From NCBI GenBank assembly GCA_910587065.1, contig CAJUMA010000001.1, forward strand, positions 9,346 through 73,345: a stretch of DNA of 64,000 bases. The letters are read 5' to 3'. How positions within the stretch are numbered: position 1 is the first letter of the stretch; each line of letters starts with the position of its first letter. The notes under the pieces were generated by a model. It was not told the origin of the DNA, did no database searches, and worked only from the letters and a program-made list of their open reading frames with translations. Both the position numbers and the translations under genes were made by a program. Positions 3,659 through 22,997 of the stretch are shown here, one piece after another. This DNA is from an uncultured Bacilli bacterium. GTDB taxonomy: Bacteria > Bacillota_I > Bacilli_A > RF39 > UBA660.

Positions 3659-3949
3659 TTACTCCTCGTCTAAATTAATTATCATATGTCTTATGATATT
3701 TTCATCAATTTTCGCTTTACGATCTAATTCACTAACGATATCATTAGTAGCATTAAAATTAACTACATAATAAAAACCAGTAATTTCTTTATTAATTGCA
3801 TAAGCTAATTTTTTTTGACCTAAATCTTTTTCTTCAGTTATTTCACCCTTCATTGATGTAATAATAGATTTTAGGTTTTCAACTGAAGTTTTAACATTAG
3901 CTTCATCAATTGTAGTTTTTACTATGAACATCATTTCATACTTGTTCAT
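3659..3949 (-). CDS. rpsF: 30S ribosomal protein S6
   Basis: MNKYEMMFIVKTTIDE.. is typical of S6, and it is the first gene of the rpsF-ssb-rpsR operon. Confidence 0.95.
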   Translation of the reverse strand: MNKYEMMFIVKTTIDEANVKTSVENLKSIITSMKGEITEEKDLGQKKLAYAINKEITGFYYVVNFNATNDIVSELDRKAKIDENIIRHMIINLDEE

Positions 3950-4045
3950 ATCTACACCTCCTTGTGGTCTATTCGGCTTTAAACACAGTTAAAGCAAGGA
4001 GCTCTTCGCTCGCAAGTATTATAACAAATAACACTCATTATGTAA
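3950..4045 (-). promoter_or_regulatory. rpsF operon promoter plus structured 5' leader
   Basis: On the minus strand: TTACAT (4045-4040), a 16-nt spacer, then TGTTATAAT (-10 at 4023-4018). A ~65-nt GC-richer leader follows (ACTTGCGAGCGAAGAGCTCCTTGC...) and ends in AAGGAGG before the ATG. An S6:S18-binding rpsF leader is known in Firmicutes, but the fold was not verified here. Confidence 0.4.
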
Positions 4046-4054
4046 ATGATTATT

Positions 4055-4888
4055 TTAAATTAACCTTCTATCTTGACTAAAGTACTGTTCCTTGAAATTA
4101 TCCTTATCAACTTGGTCTTTAAAAATCATGTCGGCTCGTTCATTTGCATTTCCCTCATCAATACTAAATAAATCTTTCTGTAATAATCCTGTTAAATTTT
4201 CAAACTTATAGTCAATTAATTCTTTATCAAAGCACTTAGTTTTAACACAGTTAAGAAAACTCGAAAAGAAAGTAATATAATTAAGCCATAGTCTATAATC
4301 GCTAGTTCCATTTGGCGTCCTAAACTCAATAACTTTTACTGGATCTTTTTTGTATGTGGTTAAAGTCTTTAAAGATATACTAAATGACTTAGCATTAATG
4401 TACCTTAAATAACGGTCACGCTTTTTTGCATTAGAATTATACTTTGCATAAAAGTGACTCCTTATTGGATGAGCATAATCTCCTGCTGATTCTCTAATAT
4501 GATTATCTTCACCAAGTGAAAAGCGATAAACAATATTTTCATAAACAGAAAACATTTTAAGAAAATTTAAAATATCATCTTCACTAAAATCATATGCATC
4601 AAGATTAGTTTGAAAACTAGCACTATCATAAGTTGCACCTAAAAACTTTAAAGTTTTAGATAGCTTCTTAAACATTACAATATTTTCTTTAGTATTTTCT
4701 AAAACTGAACTTCTTATCTCAATTCCACCATAATCAAGTGTATTATCAACACCAATCTTAAAACTTTTTGGCACTTTTTTAGCAATAACTCTTTCTCCTT
4801 CATCATATGAAACATTTTCTAACTCAATTTCCACACCATAAGGTATAAATATTTCTGGAGTTATAATATTTTTAGCAACTAAATTCAT
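4055..4888 (-). CDS. amidoligase-like (Amidoligase_2 / GS-like fold) protein, divergent
   Basis: Motif series YGVEIELE ... VDNTLDYGGIEIRSSVL ... FQTNLD (in place of the usual HVHV) ... VIEFRTPNGTSDYRLWLNYI. The pattern matches putative amidoligases. ATG 4888 with a GAAGGGGAA RBS is preferred over the GTG at 4948 used by the ORF track. Confidence 0.5.
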   Translation of the reverse strand: MNLVAKNIITPEIFIPYGVEIELENVSYDEGERVIAKKVPKSFKIGVDNTLDYGGIEIRSSVLENTKENIVMFKKLSKTLKFLGATYDSASFQTNLDAYDFSEDDILNFLKMFSVYENIVYRFSLGEDNHIRESAGDYAHPIRSHFYAKYNSNAKKRDRYLRYINAKSFSISLKTLTTYKKDPVKVIEFRTPNGTSDYRLWLNYITFFSSFLNCVKTKCFDKELIDYKFENLTGLLQKDLFSIDEGNANERADMIFKDQVDKDNFKEQYFSQDRRLI

Positions 4889-4947
4889 AAGTTCCCCTTC
4901 TTTAAGTCGGTTAGTATAACAAAAAAGCAGACTTTTTGCAAAGTCCA

Positions 4948-5637
4948 CTAATCATCTTTATAAGGATACCTATAGTAATACCTTCTTTCTTCATATTGTG
5001 GCACACTATCAAATAGTCCTATTTCCTCTTCTAATTCAGGAACTTCCGCAGTATAAATTTGATATAAATCAGCAAAATCATACTTATTAGGATTTAAAAG
5101 TAAAAATCTTAATACTTCACAAAACCTTTTCTTAGTTGATAATTCATGATAAACAAACGAATAATCAGAATTTCTTAAAGATTCTACTTCTAACCTCTCA
5201 GCAACGCCATTTAAATTCCCTTCAAAAAAACTATCATATATAATATTCTCTGACCTTTTTTTATCACATTTATAAAAAGCGTCTAAACTTCCTTTTAGCA
5301 TACTAGAAATGACAATACTTTCTAAAGGATAAGACTTATCTCCAACAAATATATTCTTAAATAAGGCTTGTATATCTTTATCATTTTTCTTAACATATAT
5401 TCCCTTACCAGTCAGTTCAATATCAATTGGATTAACACCTATACCTTCAAGATATTTTCTGGAAATGCCCTTTAAAATTTCGGCTTTTATGGCTTCAAAT
5501 AAATGAAATTTATCTTTATATTTTAATGTATAAGAATCAATTTCTGATAAAGTAGCAGTCTTTAATTCATATTCAAATTTCTCAGGGCACCAAGGATATA
5601 TATTTAGACACACAATTAAAGAACATTTAGCCTTCAT
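4948..5637 (-). CDS. hypothetical protein (229 aa), no recognisable domain
   Basis: Has a GGGGGA RBS and starts 16 nt after the ychF stop. Its stop touches or overlaps the next ORF. I recognise no motifs. Confidence 0.6.
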   Translation of the reverse strand: MKAKCSLIVCLNIYPWCPEKFEYELKTATLSEIDSYTLKYKDKFHLFEAIKAEILKGISRKYLEGIGVNPIDIELTGKGIYVKKNDKDIQALFKNIFVGDKSYPLESIVISSMLKGSLDAFYKCDKKRSENIIYDSFFEGNLNGVAERLEVESLRNSDYSFVYHELSTKKRFCEVLRFLLLNPNKYDFADLYQIYTAEVPELEEEIGLFDSVPQYEERRYYYRYPYKDD

Positions 5638-16475: not shown

Positions 16476-16900
16476 ACATAAGTGGTGTAAATAATCTTAA
16501 AACAACTTGCCAAAGTCCCTTAAATATATTAGGTGTAACTCCTTTCTTTGTTAACTTATGACTATCCTTAAAAGTAGCTAAGAAATCATTCTTAATATCA
16601 TTAATTAAATATACCCCACATTAACTGTCAAAGTATAAACTTGTTTTTATCTAGAATTCCTGAAATAACAATTCGAACATCAACACCTCTTTTTGCAGCG
16701 AAGATTAAAGCATTAGTCATGTCTGAGTCCATTATTAAATATGGTGTCATTATATATAAATGAATATCTTCACCAATAACTTCATCATCCAAAGGTGTTT
16801 ATCCATAAGGAACAGTATACCCATTTTTCTTAATACTTTAAGAAAAATTGTATCTATAATCATTAAAGTTCTTATCAACATTTCTATATGAATTCCACAT
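16474..16900 (-). pseudogene. cardiolipin synthase / PLD-family gene remnant (C-terminal half, several frame breaks and stops)
   Basis: The minus strand reads ..MTPYLIMDSDMTNALIFAAKRGVDVRIVISGILDKNKFILWQL.., then in another frame ..GVYLINDIKNDFLATFKDSHKLTKKGVTPNIFKGLWQVVLRLFTPLM*. This is a typical Cls C-terminus, but no intact ORF remains. Confidence 0.6.
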
Positions 16901-17010
16901 TGTTAAACAGTAAAATTGAAGACTGCATCACCAACTATTTTAATGGCCTAAATGTTCCTAATAATAAGCAAAATATATCACGCACTACAAAGTGTGTTTT
17001 TATTTTCATC

Positions 17011-17036
17011 AAAAAAACGGATAACATAATCCGTTT
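17011..17036 (-). terminator. intrinsic terminator of the Cys-rich small ORF
   Basis: On the minus strand: AAACGGA, loop TTATGTTA, TCCGTTT, followed by TTTT. It begins 3 nt after the stop codon. Confidence 0.7.
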
Positions 17037-17039
17037 AAA

Positions 17040-17204
17040 CTACTCAGTTGGTTCTGTTTCAGAATCACATTCACAATTTTCACAATTGCATTCTTCGCCT
17101 TCTTGGCATTCGCAATGACATTCACCTTCACATGTACACTCCATGCCTTCTTGGCATCCACATTCACATTCTTCAGTGCAATCACATTTCTTTTCTTCGT
17201 TCAT
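17040..17204 (-). CDS. 54-aa cysteine/glutamate-rich, metallothionein-like small protein (not in ORF track)
   Basis: GAAAGGAGGATAAAA-ATG starts the ORF. It translates to MNEEKKCDCTEECECGCQEGMECTCEGECHCECQEGEECNCENCECDSETEPTE*, with 14 Cys and 18 Glu. There is an internal repeat CxCxCQEGxECxCE, and the ORF has its own terminator. Confidence 0.65.
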   Translation of the reverse strand: MNEEKKCDCTEECECGCQEGMECTCEGECHCECQEGEECNCENCECDSETEPTE

Positions 17205-17323
17205 TTTTATCCTCCTTTCTTTTACTCATTTTCATTATAAATGATTAATAACAAAAAAGTAAATATCTGAGTATTTTTTTCGACAAAATATTACAAAAAA
17301 AGAGAGAAGATTAACTTCCCTTT

Positions 17324-19060
17324 TTACATTTCAGTATAAACACTAACGCTAGCAAATGTTCTATTCATTAATTCTTGATATAAAGAATTAGATGCTAATA
17401 CATCTTTGTTTTTACCCTTAGCTAAAACTTTACCTTTATCCATTACTACTACTCGGTCAGCCACCATCATCATCTCTGGTTTATGTGTAACTAAAATAAT
17501 TGTGTGATCACTTTTTAAATCATTTAGTAACGCACTAATCTGAGTTGTAGTATCAGGATCAATACTACTAGTAACCTCATCAAAGAGTAATATTTCCGCT
17601 TTTGTAAGTAAAGCTCTTGCAATAACTAATAATTGCTTTTGACCTTCCGAAAAAAGTGTTGATTCAGGATCAATAACTGTATTATATCCTTTAGGTAAAG
17701 AACTAATAAAATCATGAATGCCTACCCTTTTACAAGCCTCTATTTGATTATTCAGATTAGAATCAACTAAAGATAAATTATCTTTAATACTCATCTCAAA
17801 CATAAACGGTTTTTGAAATACACCAGAAATATTTGAAGAATAAACTTTTTTTGTATAATTATAAATACTTTCGTCATCTATTAAAATACTTCCAGATTTT
17901 ATTCTATCAAGACGATAAAGTAAATTTAAAATAGTTGTTTTTCCTGATCCACTTTTACCAACTATTGCAGTAATTTCATTAGGAAAAACTTTAAATGAAA
18001 CATTATTTAAGATTTTCTTACCCCTGATTTCATAATTAACATGGTCGAAGTTTACTGAACCATTAATATAGTCATTATCAATTTCACCATAGTCTAAAAC
18101 AGTTGATGAAGTATAATTTAAAATATTAGCTATACGATTAATACGAATTCCATAATTACTTAAATTAAGTAAATAGTCAAGCATTGTATCAGTAACTGTA
18201 ATAGTCATTTCAAAATAACTTATAAGCAAAACTAGTTTATCTAGTGCTAAACGACCATTAACAACTAAGAAAGCTAAGAAAATATATAAAGCTATTTTAC
18301 CAAAGTAAACCAGGTAAGGAATCAAACAATATCTCGATGATGTATATTTTCTTTTTAACTTATACTGTTCCTTCCAACTCTTTCTTGTTTTATCTAATTT
18401 ATTATTTAAACTGTCCATAATATTTAAACTTTTAACTTGTTTTAAATTAGAAAGACTCTGATTAAATGTATCAATTATTTTATCTTCATACTTTCTTGTA
18501 CCTTCATAATGTTTCGATATTTTTTTAGAATTGGTATTCATTAATTTTAAATATATAAAATCAACAACAAAAGCAAATAAAGCAACGAATACATTATAAT
18601 AGCAAAATATAAATAAAATAACGACAAGTTTAAGAATTCCCATTAAAGCTTCTGATGCACAGTCAACTATATCTACTAAGTATCTAATATCGTCACTGCA
18701 AGTTTCAATAACTTTACCCTTAGACATCTTACTAAATATCGTGTCATTAGAGATTACATGATCAAATAAGTCTTTTTGAACTTCTAAATGATAATAGTCT
18801 GCTAAAATCGTATACGTATAATAGTTCCAACGTAAACAACCAAAATAAGCAATATAAAACAACAAATACATTAAAACATATATCCATATACCATTAAAAT
18901 TATTTTCGGTAATAGCAGCTATTATTCCAGATGTTGCAAGTGGTGGTAATAAGCCAGCTACGTTATAAAGACAACAGCTAATAAACATTTGCACTACCAT
19001 GCCTTTTTTCTTATCAGCTATTCTCATTATAGTTTTAAAGATATCAAAATATCTTTTCAT
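17324..19060 (-). CDS. ABC exporter, fused permease/ATPase (type I exporter fold)
   Basis: Six-TM N-terminal half, Walker A GKSGSGKTT, signature FSEGQKQ, Walker B ILLFDEVTSSID. No C39 peptidase domain. Confidence 0.85.
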   Translation of the reverse strand: MKRYFDIFKTIMRIADKKKGMVVQMFISCCLYNVAGLLPPLATSGIIAAITENNFNGIWIYVLMYLLFYIAYFGCLRWNYYTYTILADYYHLEVQKDLFDHVISNDTIFSKMSKGKVIETCSDDIRYLVDIVDCASEALMGILKLVVILFIFCYYNVFVALFAFVVDFIYLKLMNTNSKKISKHYEGTRKYEDKIIDTFNQSLSNLKQVKSLNIMDSLNNKLDKTRKSWKEQYKLKRKYTSSRYCLIPYLVYFGKIALYIFLAFLVVNGRLALDKLVLLISYFEMTITVTDTMLDYLLNLSNYGIRINRIANILNYTSSTVLDYGEIDNDYINGSVNFDHVNYEIRGKKILNNVSFKVFPNEITAIVGKSGSGKTTILNLLYRLDRIKSGSILIDDESIYNYTKKVYSSNISGVFQKPFMFEMSIKDNLSLVDSNLNNQIEACKRVGIHDFISSLPKGYNTVIDPESTLFSEGQKQLLVIARALLTKAEILLFDEVTSSIDPDTTTQISALLNDLKSDHTIILVTHKPEMMMVADRVVVMDKGKVLAKGKNKDVLASNSLYQELMNRTFASVSVYTEM

Positions 19061-19062
19061 AA

Positions 19063-20244
19063 TTACTTAATATCTTTCTCATATTCAATATCATTGATTG
19101 AATATTTTTTAGTTTTAGCAATAAAGTTTAGTACCTTGTTAGCCATAAATACAATCAAAGCTAGCAAAATAAAATAGGCAAATCCAAATGTTGTAAATTT
19201 GGGCTCTGTTTTCGTGAGAAGTCCAATAATTGAAACACCTGCACTCATTGAAGTAACAATTGTTAAACTGTTAATTGAATTACTAGTTACATCTTGTTTT
19301 AATCCATTAAATAACTTTTGAGCAGAACTTACATAGTCTTTCGTCATATTCCAAATTTGTTTAATATAATCTAAAGTATCACGTAAAGTTTCATATCTAT
19401 ATCCACTAATTCTTAAGAATTCCTCTAATTCAGAATCAGATTTAGCAATCTTCTCACGTGTAGATATATAAGAACTCATTTGATTAATTCTACCACTTAT
19501 TAAACTTATCGTCTTAGCATAGCCATCTAATTTAGATGTGAATTTAACAATATCAGCACCCTTAACATTAGCATTCTCCTTAACTACATCAATTTTTTCC
19601 CAAATAATTCTATGAATATTTAAATAACGATGCAATTGTCCCTTAAATTCACGAATAAATATTTGCTCTTCAATATATCTTTCAATATTGGATATAGATT
19701 GACTTTTGTTATTAATGAAATAGTACTTATCTCCTCTAACAACATCATACTTTTCATTTTTAAACTCAAAATATTTTTGCTTTTCTGTTCTTGACAAAAG
19801 TTCATTTATTTGATTCTTAGTGGCCTTATCAACTGTAACAAAATATGGATAAATAGTTTCTATGCTAGCAAGTTCTTTAGGAATTGGTGCACCTAAACTA
19901 AAAAGATAAGACAAAGCAGGTGACAATTTGTTTTCATAATAATCAGTTACATGATCAATATCTGCAAATAATGTATCTTCACTGACTTCACTATTTTTAA
20001 GTGTTATTAAACCATCTTCAAAAATCTTAACAGTTATATTAAGAGAAGTTGTAAATTGAATAAATTCTTCACCAGCTACATCATAATCAATTTTACCTAT
20101 TTTTAATTCTTTTTTATACTCTGCAAGTTTTTCAGGATCTAATGCTAATTGAGATGATCCATCTCTTAAGAAATCATATATTTCTGATAATTGAAGCATG
20201 GTTCTTTGAAACCAACCACCAACATAAACATTACTTATCTTCAT
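19063..20244 (-). CDS. hypothetical protein: ~330-aa soluble domain plus two C-terminal TM helices
   Basis: Its stop lies 2 nt before the ABC gene start, suggesting translational coupling. TM helices are INSLTIVTSMSAGVSIIGLL and FGFAYFILLALIVFMANKVL. No named family recognised. Confidence 0.6.
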   Translation of the reverse strand: MKISNVYVGGWFQRTMLQLSEIYDFLRDGSSQLALDPEKLAEYKKELKIGKIDYDVAGEEFIQFTTSLNITVKIFEDGLITLKNSEVSEDTLFADIDHVTDYYENKLSPALSYLFSLGAPIPKELASIETIYPYFVTVDKATKNQINELLSRTEKQKYFEFKNEKYDVVRGDKYYFINNKSQSISNIERYIEEQIFIREFKGQLHRYLNIHRIIWEKIDVVKENANVKGADIVKFTSKLDGYAKTISLISGRINQMSSYISTREKIAKSDSELEEFLRISGYRYETLRDTLDYIKQIWNMTKDYVSSAQKLFNGLKQDVTSNSINSLTIVTSMSAGVSIIGLLTKTEPKFTTFGFAYFILLALIVFMANKVLNFIAKTKKYSINDIEYEKDIK

Positions 20245-20261
20245 AATACTTCACTCCTAAT

Positions 20262-20702
20262 TTATTTTACACCTATAGAGAAGAACTTAGCATCATCAAC
20301 ATGAAAGCCAAAGTTTTTATAACAAGCATGGGCTGCCTCACGGAAATTCATTGACCATAACTCCATTGCAACGCACCCATTATCCTTGCATATTCTATTA
20401 CACTCTTCTAGCATTTGAGTTGCTAAATTATGTCTTCTATAATCTGGTCTTACACAAACATGATTTAATATGGCATATTTATTCATCTTTTCATAAATTG
20501 TTGGAATAATAGTTATCTTAGTATGAGCAATAACCTCACCATCAACAGACCCAATTAAATATATTTGATTTTTATCATCTTTAGTTTCATTAAAAACTTT
20601 TTTTGCATAATCTAAACTGGTCTCTTCTTCAAAGCATTCATTACAAAGTTTTATAATCGCTTCTACATCATTTTCATTTGCTATTCTAAAATCCAATTTC
20701 AT
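20262..20702 (-). CDS. GNAT family N-acetyltransferase
   Basis: 146 aa with an acetyl-CoA binding region HVCVRPDYRRHNLATQMLE. It ends 17 nt upstream of the next gene. Confidence 0.8.
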   Translation of the reverse strand: MKLDFRIANENDVEAIIKLCNECFEEETSLDYAKKVFNETKDDKNQIYLIGSVDGEVIAHTKITIIPTIYEKMNKYAILNHVCVRPDYRRHNLATQMLEECNRICKDNGCVAMELWSMNFREAAHACYKNFGFHVDDAKFFSIGVK

Positions 20703-21443: not shown

Positions 21444-22907
21444 TTAAACACATGGATATGGGCAATCAGAGCAATTATGGATATTGTTCTTCTTTAAAAC
21501 TTTAAGTCCATCCTTGCTATTAATAATAACGGATTCTTGAGATTTTATATCTTCATCACTTAACGATTCGCCCCCATTCATTAGTTGCAAATGATTTTTT
21601 ACTATCTCAAAGCCTTTTTCAGTCATTATATAGACAGGTATTTTTACTCCAACTTGTAAAATAGCATTCGGGGCAATTTCTGATTTAACATACTTTGATG
21701 CACATGACCAAACAACATCGGCATAATCTCGTATAGAAATAGCCGTAGCATAATCTATGCCTGTAGAACATAAACCAAATTTATATATTTTTATATTATT
21801 CTCCTTTTCTAATCTTTCAAGTTCTCTATGCAATTTATTATCCTGAGCTGCTACTGAAACTGCAATTTTTTTATACCCTAAACTTATTGCCTTTTTTACT
21901 CCCTCTAATTGATCAATAATGGCCGTATAAGGAAATACTGGTATAATACCTGCTTCTTTAGCCCTTTCAAGAATTGTTTTGTTAGGACTTGTATGAAAAA
22001 GTCCTGTCATTCTCTTAACTGCACCTTGAGTATTAAATTCATTAGTAGTGATTATTGTTCCTAGATTATTAGAAACTATGACAGCGGCATCGATAAGTCC
22101 TGTTTTAAAGGCTGAAGACATTGTCTCACTTGCTCCAAACAAAACATTTGCTTCACAAGAATTTAAAGGTCTATTAGTATCAAAATAACCACTTTCAATA
22201 ACTACTTCATTTATTAGATTACACATTTCTTTAGTTTGTTTTCGTAAATCTGATTTACCTAAACACTCAATTAATTTCTTAGCATTATCCCCACCAACTT
22301 CTTCTAAAAGTTTTTTCATAAGTGGACAATATTTAATAGGTATGGGTGTGGCAGCCACAGCTTTCAATTTATTAGCATTTTTCATTAGTAGAATATAACT
22401 TCCAAACATTCTAGTAATATGAAAACCACTTGCATCTAAAGAATCTCTAATAGCATGAAGAATTTTACTTCCAACATCTCTAATATTATTATCTAAATTC
22501 TTATTCAATAAAACTATGTTAAGCCTACCATCTGAAATGTACACATTATCATCTTTATTTAACATTCCATTTTCTGTAAGTATATTTTTTACAAAAGCAA
22601 TTAGTTGATCATTAAAATTTTTATAATCAATCTTAATTCCCTCAAAATATTTACTTAAATCAAGATTATTTAATCTAAAAGTCATATATATACCTTTAAA
22701 TCTATACTTTTGAACAAAAGTGTGATAATCACTTTCTGAAGTTTCTGAAAAAAATTCCGTATAATAATATTCTAAATCATTTATTTCATTCATATTTTCG
22801 GAAACACATATAGGTGAAGATAACTCGCCATCATAACCTTCAAATAAATAATATCCAACGATATTTTCATATAAGATACCTTCCTTACATATTTGCTCTT
22901 TTAACAT
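21444..22907 (-). CDS. hypothetical protein (488 aa) with C-terminal CxxCPxPC motif
   Basis: ATG 22907 with a GAGGTGAT RBS is preferred over the track start at 22982. The C-terminus is ..NIHNCSDCPYPCV*. Divergent from a LysR gene. No family assigned. Confidence 0.6.
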   Translation of the reverse strand: MLKEQICKEGILYENIVGYYLFEGYDGELSSPICVSENMNEINDLEYYYTEFFSETSESDYHTFVQKYRFKGIYMTFRLNNLDLSKYFEGIKIDYKNFNDQLIAFVKNILTENGMLNKDDNVYISDGRLNIVLLNKNLDNNIRDVGSKILHAIRDSLDASGFHITRMFGSYILLMKNANKLKAVAATPIPIKYCPLMKKLLEEVGGDNAKKLIECLGKSDLRKQTKEMCNLINEVVIESGYFDTNRPLNSCEANVLFGASETMSSAFKTGLIDAAVIVSNNLGTIITTNEFNTQGAVKRMTGLFHTSPNKTILERAKEAGIIPVFPYTAIIDQLEGVKKAISLGYKKIAVSVAAQDNKLHRELERLEKENNIKIYKFGLCSTGIDYATAISIRDYADVVWSCASKYVKSEIAPNAILQVGVKIPVYIMTEKGFEIVKNHLQLMNGGESLSDEDIKSQESVIINSKDGLKVLKKNNIHNCSDCPYPCV

Positions 22908-22997
22908 ATATATCACCTCTTCTGCTTGTATTATAGAAAAAAATATGGTATAAATAAAATATATATTTTTTATTTTAGACATAAAAAGGACTTATAT

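Follow-up and report, generated by a model that had tools for sequence, protein, structure and literature searches.

A conserved cysteine-rich gene under purifying selection

The subject of this analysis is a 54-codon open reading frame (ORF) on the minus strand of a 64-kb stretch of DNA from an uncultured Bacilli bacterium; "the window" denotes that whole stretch. The window has a guanine-plus-cytosine (GC) content of 27.5%, and the closest named relatives of the genes neighboring the ORF come from Erysipelotrichales, Bacilli, or "Tenericutes" metagenome-assembled genomes (MAGs). An initial annotation made from the letters of the sequence had described the ORF as metallothionein-like. The coordinates, translation, ribosome-binding site (RBS), and terminator 3 nt downstream that it gave are all reproduced exactly in the features below.

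17040..17204 (-), Cys-rich, metallothionein-like ORF (the Cys ORF), 54 codons with an ATG start, product MNEEKKCDCTEECECGCQEGMECTCEGECHCECQEGEECNCENCECDSETEPTE followed by the stop codon
17079..17171 (-), internal tandem duplication, two 45-nt direct copies at a 48-nt spacing (16 codons), 76% identity
17211..17218 (-), Shine-Dalgarno sequence AAAGGAGG, 6 nt 5' of the ATG, same sequence in a sister species (loci L112 and L114)
17234..17263 (-), predicted sigma-70-type promoter, -35 TTTACT, 18-nt spacer, -10 TATAAT, 10/12 consensus positions
17008..17036 (-), intrinsic terminator, 8-bp stem AAACGGAT/ATCCGTTT, 6-nt loop, T7 run, kept in L112 and L114
17303..17321 (-), terminator of the upstream ATP-binding cassette (ABC) exporter gene, between the ABC transcript and the Cys ORF unit

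Because the ABC gene ends in a terminator of its own, the small ORF is apparently transcribed as a separate unit. The hairpin behind the Cys ORF (17036-17015) begins 3 nt past the stop codon (-8.7 kcal/mol, z = -1.8), and the 1.2-kb region holds 4 terminator-like sites where 0.3 are expected. An Rfam scan of the window returned a single match, a distant tRNA, and none at the Cys ORF. About 20 nt 5' of the -35 element, at 17281-17292 (-), lies a conserved element, ATATTTTGTCGA, that is also found upstream in L112 and in two further loci, L075 and L092, and that may serve as a regulator site or as an UP element.

The product consists of two 16-residue modules and an acidic ETEPTE tail. It has a mass of 6.09 kDa and contains 14 Cys (25.9%), 18 Glu, and 1 His, as counted before, and the duplication noted previously in the protein is visible even in the DNA as the 45-nt repeat with 76% identity. 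There are no aromatic residues and, apart from Met, no aliphatic ones; the cysteines begin at residue 7, and each of them lies within a CxC, CxCxC, or CxxC arrangement. Among the 375 window ORFs of at least 40 aa in six frames, this ORF, read from stop to stop, has a Cys share of 23%, compared with 12% for the runner-up and a median of 1.6%. Its cysteine richness exceeds chance and makes it the top outlier in the window.

Evidence that the ORF is a selected gene comes from the sister-species locus (L112-L114), in which the flanking ABC gene is 96.5% identical in protein and ~91% identical in DNA. Between the Cys ORFs of the window and L112, the ratio of nonsynonymous to synonymous substitution rates (dN/dS) is 0.08, 14/14 Cys are retained, and third codon positions hold 16 of the 23 nucleotide differences; alternative frames give ratios of 0.9-3.1, save for one antisense frame that carries an internal stop. 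The alignment is collinear through the ABC terminator, -35, -10, RBS, ORF, and terminator. An identical 54-aa protein is encoded on 209 public contigs, mainly mouse-gut assemblies, and a natural variant of 38 aa (P0002) lacks exactly one 16-residue module. All indels among the variants and relative to L112 are in frame. Among the properties that the initial annotation had named for checking, purifying selection and a conserved reading frame are found, the length variants differing by whole modules. Two plus-strand ORFs that it had dismissed as antisense shadows (16888-17118 and 17048-17248) do exist and are such shadows, because the coding-type substitution pattern, as seen in the frame-specific dN/dS, sits in the minus-strand frame.

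The ORF is short and is without annotation in all sources, which could be taken to mean that it is spurious or that the region is a non-coding or antisense element. This explanation is countered by the dN/dS of 0.08 with frame-specific third-position changes, by a Cys pattern kept across ~200 homologs, and by the in-frame indels and the conserved RBS, promoter, and terminator. The family profile, the alignment, and dN/dS effectively refute it, and we give it practically no weight. The Cys ORF is a real gene under purifying selection.

The gene belongs to a family whose members share a 16-residue module, C-x-C-x3-C-x-C-G-C-Q-E-G-K-E-C-T-C. The family consensus reads M-x-E-E-K-K-C-N-C-x-P-D-C-T-C-G-C-Q-E-G-K-E-C-T-C, followed by at least one further module, and the columns C13, C15, G16, C17, G20, C23, and C25 are invariant in an alignment of 40 sequences. 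The window protein has all of these invariant columns and the N-terminal lead-in M-x-E-E-K-K-C-x-C, and it matches the family profile with an E-value of 6e-12. A single-sequence word-index search returned only the protein itself and one fragment. HMMER found 8 relatives among 1.84 billion representatives, and a profile made from those 8 found 205. A metagenome scan gave 163 tblastn-confirmed stretches, mainly from rumen or gut assemblies and mostly with a GC fraction of 0.22-0.33, of which 80 loci were kept. The tblastn and HMM searches that had been proposed for this ORF thus recovered a family of ~200 members. We counted 195 distinct family proteins, 167 of them free-standing, with a median of 49 aa, 12 Cys, and 27% Cys, and with Phe, Tyr, and Trp together making up 0.8%.

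No name was attached to any family member in the sources looked up (cluster look-ups and profile matches). The window protein had no match in a PDB sequence search, and neither it nor the module had a significant match in Pfam or NCBIfam. The literature searched, on metallothioneins of Firmicutes, Cys-rich proteins linked to CsoR, Cys-rich extensions of GrpE, and small proteins of the gut, did not describe the family. We conclude with high confidence that this is a real, conserved, previously undescribed family of metallothionein type that is widespread in low-GC gut and rumen bacteria. At L048:528-1373, a DeoC aldolase ORF continues at its C-terminal end into the Cys module; this may reflect a true fusion, the loss of a stop codon, or an assembly artifact.

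CsoR, CopZ, and GrpE in the family context

In L112-L114, the ABC gene and the Cys ORF are separated by a 95-codon gene that ends 16 nt before the Cys ORF ATG. Its 95-aa product belongs to the CsoR family (PF02583). The best PDB matches are 4M1P, 4ADZ, and 2HH7 (E 4e-14 to 1e-12), which are structures of the copper sensor CsoR from Geobacillus, Streptomyces, and M. tuberculosis; the Cu(I)-ligand motif Y-C...H-x3-C aligns with that of CsoR 4M1P, and the closest NCBIfam model is the copper sensor RicR. According to the alignment, L112/L114 have the promoter of the window in front of csoR and the Cys ORF, and the window lacks ~290 nt of the sister-species sequence, csoR included. Two features mark the change.

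17219..17233 (-), deletion scar at the csoR site, ~290 nt with the 95-codon csoR gone
17264..17276 (-), putative position of a decayed CsoR box, AAATACTCAGATA in the window and AAATACCCCCTTA in the sister species, abutting the -35

The scar includes ATGAGTAAA (17229-17221), which resembles the csoR start of two distant loci, L029 and L023. In the alignment, the box changes from CCCCTT in L112 to TCAGAT in the window; in longer reads of the sequence abutting the -35, AAAATACCCCCTTATTTAC in L112 becomes AAAATACTCAGATATTTAC in the window. The window promoter has no recognizable CsoR operator, with TACTCAGAT where L112 has TACCCCCTT, and ATACCCCC is absent throughout the 64 kb. The window lineage is the commoner of the two, on 209 contigs compared with 18 for the csoR-bearing sister lineage. 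Our reading of these comparisons is that an operon of csoR and the metallothionein-like gene would be ancestral, and that the window lineage would have lost both repressor and operator, which would put the gene under a consensus-like promoter free of regulation. With csoR deleted and the box mutated, expression of the Cys ORF is probably constitutive in the window genome.

Of the 48 informative locus clusters in the family, 8 have csoR next to the Cys gene; we count these as ~6 independent lineages. We judge this to be well above chance, without a formal background computation, because csoR-family genes are rare per genome. A C-tract box, TATACCCCCTTATTTAC, precedes csoR in the distant operons of csoR and Cys gene in L023, L029/L030, and L069, and full palindromic CsoR-type operators are present in L061 (ATACCCCCAAGGGGTAT) and L079 (TACCCCCTCGGGGTGTA). 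When CsoR boxes were sought upstream of all family members, they were found only beside an adjacent csoR, so control of other members by CsoR in trans cannot be claimed. The low-GC CsoR proteins (L023:~4705-4989, L029:~3705-3990, and L069:193-483) start with MS(N/K)CCKK or MKQCCKK, and this N-terminal Cys pair is extra compared with the aligned CsoR structures.

The module also occurs as part of larger proteins. On the high-GC contigs L061, L074, and L087, 4-5 tandem modules (CDCGADCxCGCQ[DE]GKPCTC) stand N-terminal to an HMA/CopZ domain (Pfam 8e-14; NCBIfam CopZ 6e-14). The gene for this fusion is flanked by a RicR-like csoR and a gene for a CPC-motif P-type ATPase, downstream of the perfect CsoR operator ATACCCCCAAGGGGTAT. 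Full-length GrpE proteins (PF01025, E 1e-34 to 1e-48) that carry the module at their N-terminus are encoded between hrcA and dnaK in at least 7 low-GC lineages. The literature searched on Cys-rich GrpE extensions did not mention such a fusion.

L061:5302-8984 and L087:5230-8305, csoR-copZ-copA operon with module-CopZ, GC 0.69
L032, L033, L036, L040, L044, L045, L067, L072, L085, L090, L101, L103, and L106, module-GrpE loci (example L032:5986-6627)

A further group of members has signal-peptide or lipobox-like N-termini (MYKLFTSLFLLGALCFSANTVLAC...) and is followed by csoR (L079:493-792, L089:1787-2125, and L091:5908-6246); this form is preceded by TACCCCCTCGGGGTGTA. Their sequences suggest an extracytoplasmic version of the module. 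Fusion to GrpE, in turn, implies a cytoplasmic site of action for the module. No hydrophobic stretch of any kind is present in the window protein, and on this sequence evidence, together with the fusion of the module to full-length GrpE, we assign it to the cytoplasm. From the GrpE fusion, the DnaK cycle may also be tied to copper or thiol status; under anaerobic conditions copper becomes more toxic, and it acts through protein aggregation, which chaperones counter (PMC9040851). A DUF362 protein recurs near family genes in six lineages.

Relation to known metallothioneins and copper proteins

By composition, the window protein falls within the definition of a metallothionein: low mass, ~15-30% Cys, few or no aromatics, and CxC/CxxC motifs. 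A review of copper homeostasis names SmtA/BmtA and MymT as bacterial metallothionein families and reports that MymT, the Cu(I) metallothionein of M. tuberculosis, is up-regulated for copper resistance and needed for it (PMC7558416). Like the window protein, MymT is small (~5-6 kDa), Cys-rich, and cytoplasmic, and it too was at first unannotated. MymT is controlled by RicR, a CsoR paralog; as MymT belongs to the RicR regulon, so the sister-species ortholog of the Cys ORF is part of a csoR operon, and RicR is the model that the regulator of this operon matches best. However, there is no detectable homology between the two proteins, and MymT-type proteins are absent from the HMMER and profile matches. 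The window protein differs further in its repeated CxCx3CxCGC modules and higher Cys content, in its lineage (low-GC Bacilli MAGs), and in that its regulator gene is deleted in the window. By analogy, MymT appears to be its nearest functional counterpart.

SmtA and BmtA are likewise small Cys-rich bacterial metal buffers encoded beside their own metal-sensing repressor, but the window protein lacks the zinc-finger fold, the aromatics, and the His ligands of these Zn4Cys9His2 proteins, having a single His, and it does not match PF02069 even at E<=10. SmtA is paired with SmtB, a zinc-responsive repressor of the ArsR family, whereas the partner of the Cys gene is CsoR. Eukaryotic metallothioneins such as dipteran Mtn and yeast Cup1 share with the window protein a Cys content of 25-30%, the absence of aromatics, CxC-rich sequence, and modular repeats, and they are likewise disordered without metal. 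Against Metallothio_5 (PF02067), the window protein scores 7.7 bits (E 5.3), compared with a gathering threshold of 25 bits; the best family member reaches 14.8 bits, and the E-values of the family range from 0.03 to 5.8, all sub-threshold. This similarity, the only signal that the profile and structure databases gave, is compositional and is not evidence of homology.

Copper proteins of other kinds offer looser parallels. Csps are pre-folded, tetrameric four-helix bundles of ~120 aa with a Cys-lined core. The window protein would, like Csp1 and Csp3, be a cytosolic thiolate-based Cu(I) store, but it has 54 aa, no predicted helices, and no Pfam or PDB match that would place it among them. In bacteria, Csp1 and Csp3 serve as such stores, and archaeal CopZ, which carries a Cys-rich N-terminal Fe-S domain, acts as a cupric reductase (PMC7558416). 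The L061/L087 proteins, with 4-5 modules before the HMA domain in a csoR-copZ-copA operon, resemble CopZ with a Cys-rich extension; the window protein differs in having no HMA domain, and the archaeal extension differs in being another sequence that binds Fe-S.

An AlphaFold2 model of the window protein (pLDDT, the predicted local distance difference test score, 62.5) has no regular fold and no predicted helices, and Foldseek found no fold match for it in the PDB. A model of such low confidence would fit a peptide that needs metal in order to fold, and proves nothing. Judged by sequence, the window protein lies outside the MymT, SmtA/BmtA, Csp, and eukaryotic metallothionein families. The initial annotation had already set it apart from the known bacterial metallothioneins, a view that the lack of any significant Pfam, NCBIfam, or PDB match bears out.

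Proposed copper buffering and competing readings

We propose that the ORF product is a cytoplasmic metallothionein-like protein whose 14 Cys thiolates would wrap Cu(I) clusters and buffer copper. In the ancestral arrangement, a two-gene operon would have had csoR first and the metallothionein-like gene second. CsoR would act as a repressor from a C-tract box that overlaps the -35 and would come off on binding Cu(I), such that the thiol-rich buffer would be made only under copper stress. In the window lineage, csoR is gone and the box appears decayed, with promoter, RBS, ORF, and terminator intact, and the protein would be made constitutively. Metal-thiolate binding, Cu(I) as the physiological metal, CsoR repression, and constitutive expression are the parts of this proposal that we infer. 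The metallothionein-like character claimed at the outset gains support from the csoR operon at the ortholog, the module-CopZ fusion, and the composition of the family. Overall, on functional evidence that is all contextual, we consider a copper buffer, ancestrally CsoR-controlled and now constitutive in the window lineage, to be the probable reading, if by no means a secure one.

Several observations weigh against this proposal. The low-GC csoR operons have a half-site-like C-tract and not a full palindrome. No csoR or C-tract box lies within 700 nt of the Cys gene in 40 of the 48 informative clusters or in any of the GrpE fusions. The ortholog in the syntenic, more distant species represented by L075 and L115 also has no adjoining csoR, so the linkage is not universal even inside the subgroup. 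A search of the 64-kb window found no csoR, copA, copZ, or grpE homolog, and of these the absence of copA, copZ, and csoR speaks against a copper function. The CsoR family also contains sensors that do not respond to copper, and the ligand signature is the sole basis on which the CsoR proteins described here would be assigned to copper. Finally, in three lineages a family gene has a cation diffusion facilitator (CDF) efflux gene of the Zn/Cd/Co type (Cation_efflux plus ZT_dimer) no more than 2.5 kb away, such that the metal may differ between members or be zinc.

L038, L041, and L056, CDF-neighbor loci (example L056:4130-5227)

These CDF transporters, and the many members with no CsoR linkage, are what one would expect if the protein were a metallothionein for Zn(II) (or Cd or Co), or a non-selective buffer of soft metals, instead of being specific to copper. 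Classical Zn/Cd metallothioneins form M(II)-thiolate clusters, and 14 Cys at CxC/CxCxC spacing would allow M(II)4-5 clusters of that type. However, CsoR with a Cu(I) C-H-C signature is the only immediately adjacent recurrent regulator, the sole fusion to a metal domain is with CopZ/HMA beside a CPC-motif ATPase, and no ArsR/SmtB, Zur, or CzrA-type regulator was seen adjoining any member. We therefore regard a zinc or non-selective buffer as unlikely, although it is the alternative to which we give the most weight. A role in redox chemistry, in which the module would be a thiol buffer, a sensor, or an Fe-S module and the free peptide a sacrificial thiol pool in an anaerobe, seems to us improbable. 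The module-GrpE genes inside hrcA-grpE-dnaK operons in at least 7 lineages do suggest a regulatory or sensory role in proteostasis, the Cys-rich N-terminal Fe-S domain of archaeal CopZ points the same way (PMC7558416), and DUF362 and flavin/rubredoxin genes lie nearby. Yet control by CsoR and the csoR-copZ-copA operon speak for copper handling, Fe-S proteins do not typically combine a Cys content of 25-27% with a near absence of hydrophobic core residues, and the GrpE fusion is equally explained by copper-induced aggregation in anaerobes, which chaperones counter (PMC9040851).

The initial annotation had also offered an exported peptide or a ribosomally synthesized and post-translationally modified peptide (RiPP) as an alternative, citing the ABC exporter gene immediately upstream. 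The genes concerned are as follows.

17324-19060 (-), ABC exporter gene, 578 aa, directly upstream of the Cys ORF
17324-20702 (-), GNAT-393aa-ABC cassette, comprising a GNAT protein of 146 aa, a 393-aa protein with two transmembrane segments (no Pfam match), and the ABC exporter of 578 aa

A small Cys-rich peptide encoded right after an ABC exporter could be a precursor handled by that exporter (ranthipeptide/SCIFF-like, or a thioether peptide), and an ABC exporter 41% identical to that of the window directly precedes csoR and the Cys gene in L029. Several findings argue otherwise. The ABC gene has its own terminator, and its protein has the ABC_membrane and ABC_tran domains only, with no peptidase domain. 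The cassette is kept as a unit in 13 related MAG loci (L005-L018), none of which has the Cys ORF after it, and L075/L115 carry a short-chain dehydrogenase/reductase (SDR) gene where the window has the cassette. The gene order common to the window, L075, and L115 is DUF2099, Ogt, Cys ORF, PLD-like, metallophosphoesterase, a 155-aa gene, and flavin reductase. No radical-SAM, lanthipeptide, or YcaO maturase is present among the neighboring genes, the protein has no leader region, and neither SCIFF nor any other NCBIfam precursor model matches it even at E<=10. Fusion of the module to cytoplasmic GrpE and CopZ likewise does not fit an exported peptide. Because the Cys ORF is absent beside the closest homologs of the ABC exporter (65-79% identity, L005-L018), we reject a link to the exporter and treat the cassette as independent of the Cys ORF; a RiPP or exported peptide is highly improbable. 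The exporter in L029 (L029:1893-4183, and also L030) has no 393-aa partner, and its placement is probably a coincidence.

Beyond the copper-buffer proposal for the window gene, we tentatively advance a broader picture whose parts are less likely than that proposal to hold jointly. The module may be a new mobile metal-cluster domain that defines one more bacterial lineage of metallothioneins (the third or a later one), confined to gut and rumen Bacilli with small, low-GC genomes. Three forms would exist, namely a CsoR-controlled free buffer, a CopZ add-on, and a GrpE add-on coupling copper or thiol status to DnaK, and the loss of csoR would fix the "on" state in the mouse-gut lineage that dominates. 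The bacterial metallothionein families known so far are very few, and the literature searched described none for low-GC gut anaerobes; if correct, this picture would enlarge their number by a family with ~200 sequences or more, none of them named in databases. It comes with a ready regulatory hypothesis (csoR, C-tract box, and metallothionein-like gene) and with a natural experiment, as repressor-deleted and repressor-bearing forms are sister lineages. The module-GrpE and module-CopZ proteins, two unreported fusions, would tie copper handling to chaperones in anaerobes (PMC9040851). The hosts are uncultured, yet the peptide is small enough for synthesis or expression, which makes the central claim directly testable.

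Two other features of the window deserve mention. The apparently empty gap of 625 nt after the Cys ORF is explained by the remnant of a PLD-like gene (PF13091): at 16477-16947 (-) lies a frameshifted, N-terminally truncated version (residues ~276-499) of a 499-aa gene that is intact directly downstream of the Cys ORF in L075 and L115. At 21444-22982 (-), the window encodes a 512-aa DUF2099 protein that resembles methanogenesis marker 8, here in a bacterial gut MAG; it matches TIGR03275 with an E-value of 4e-53, under the model cut-off, and is conserved in the syntenic relatives.

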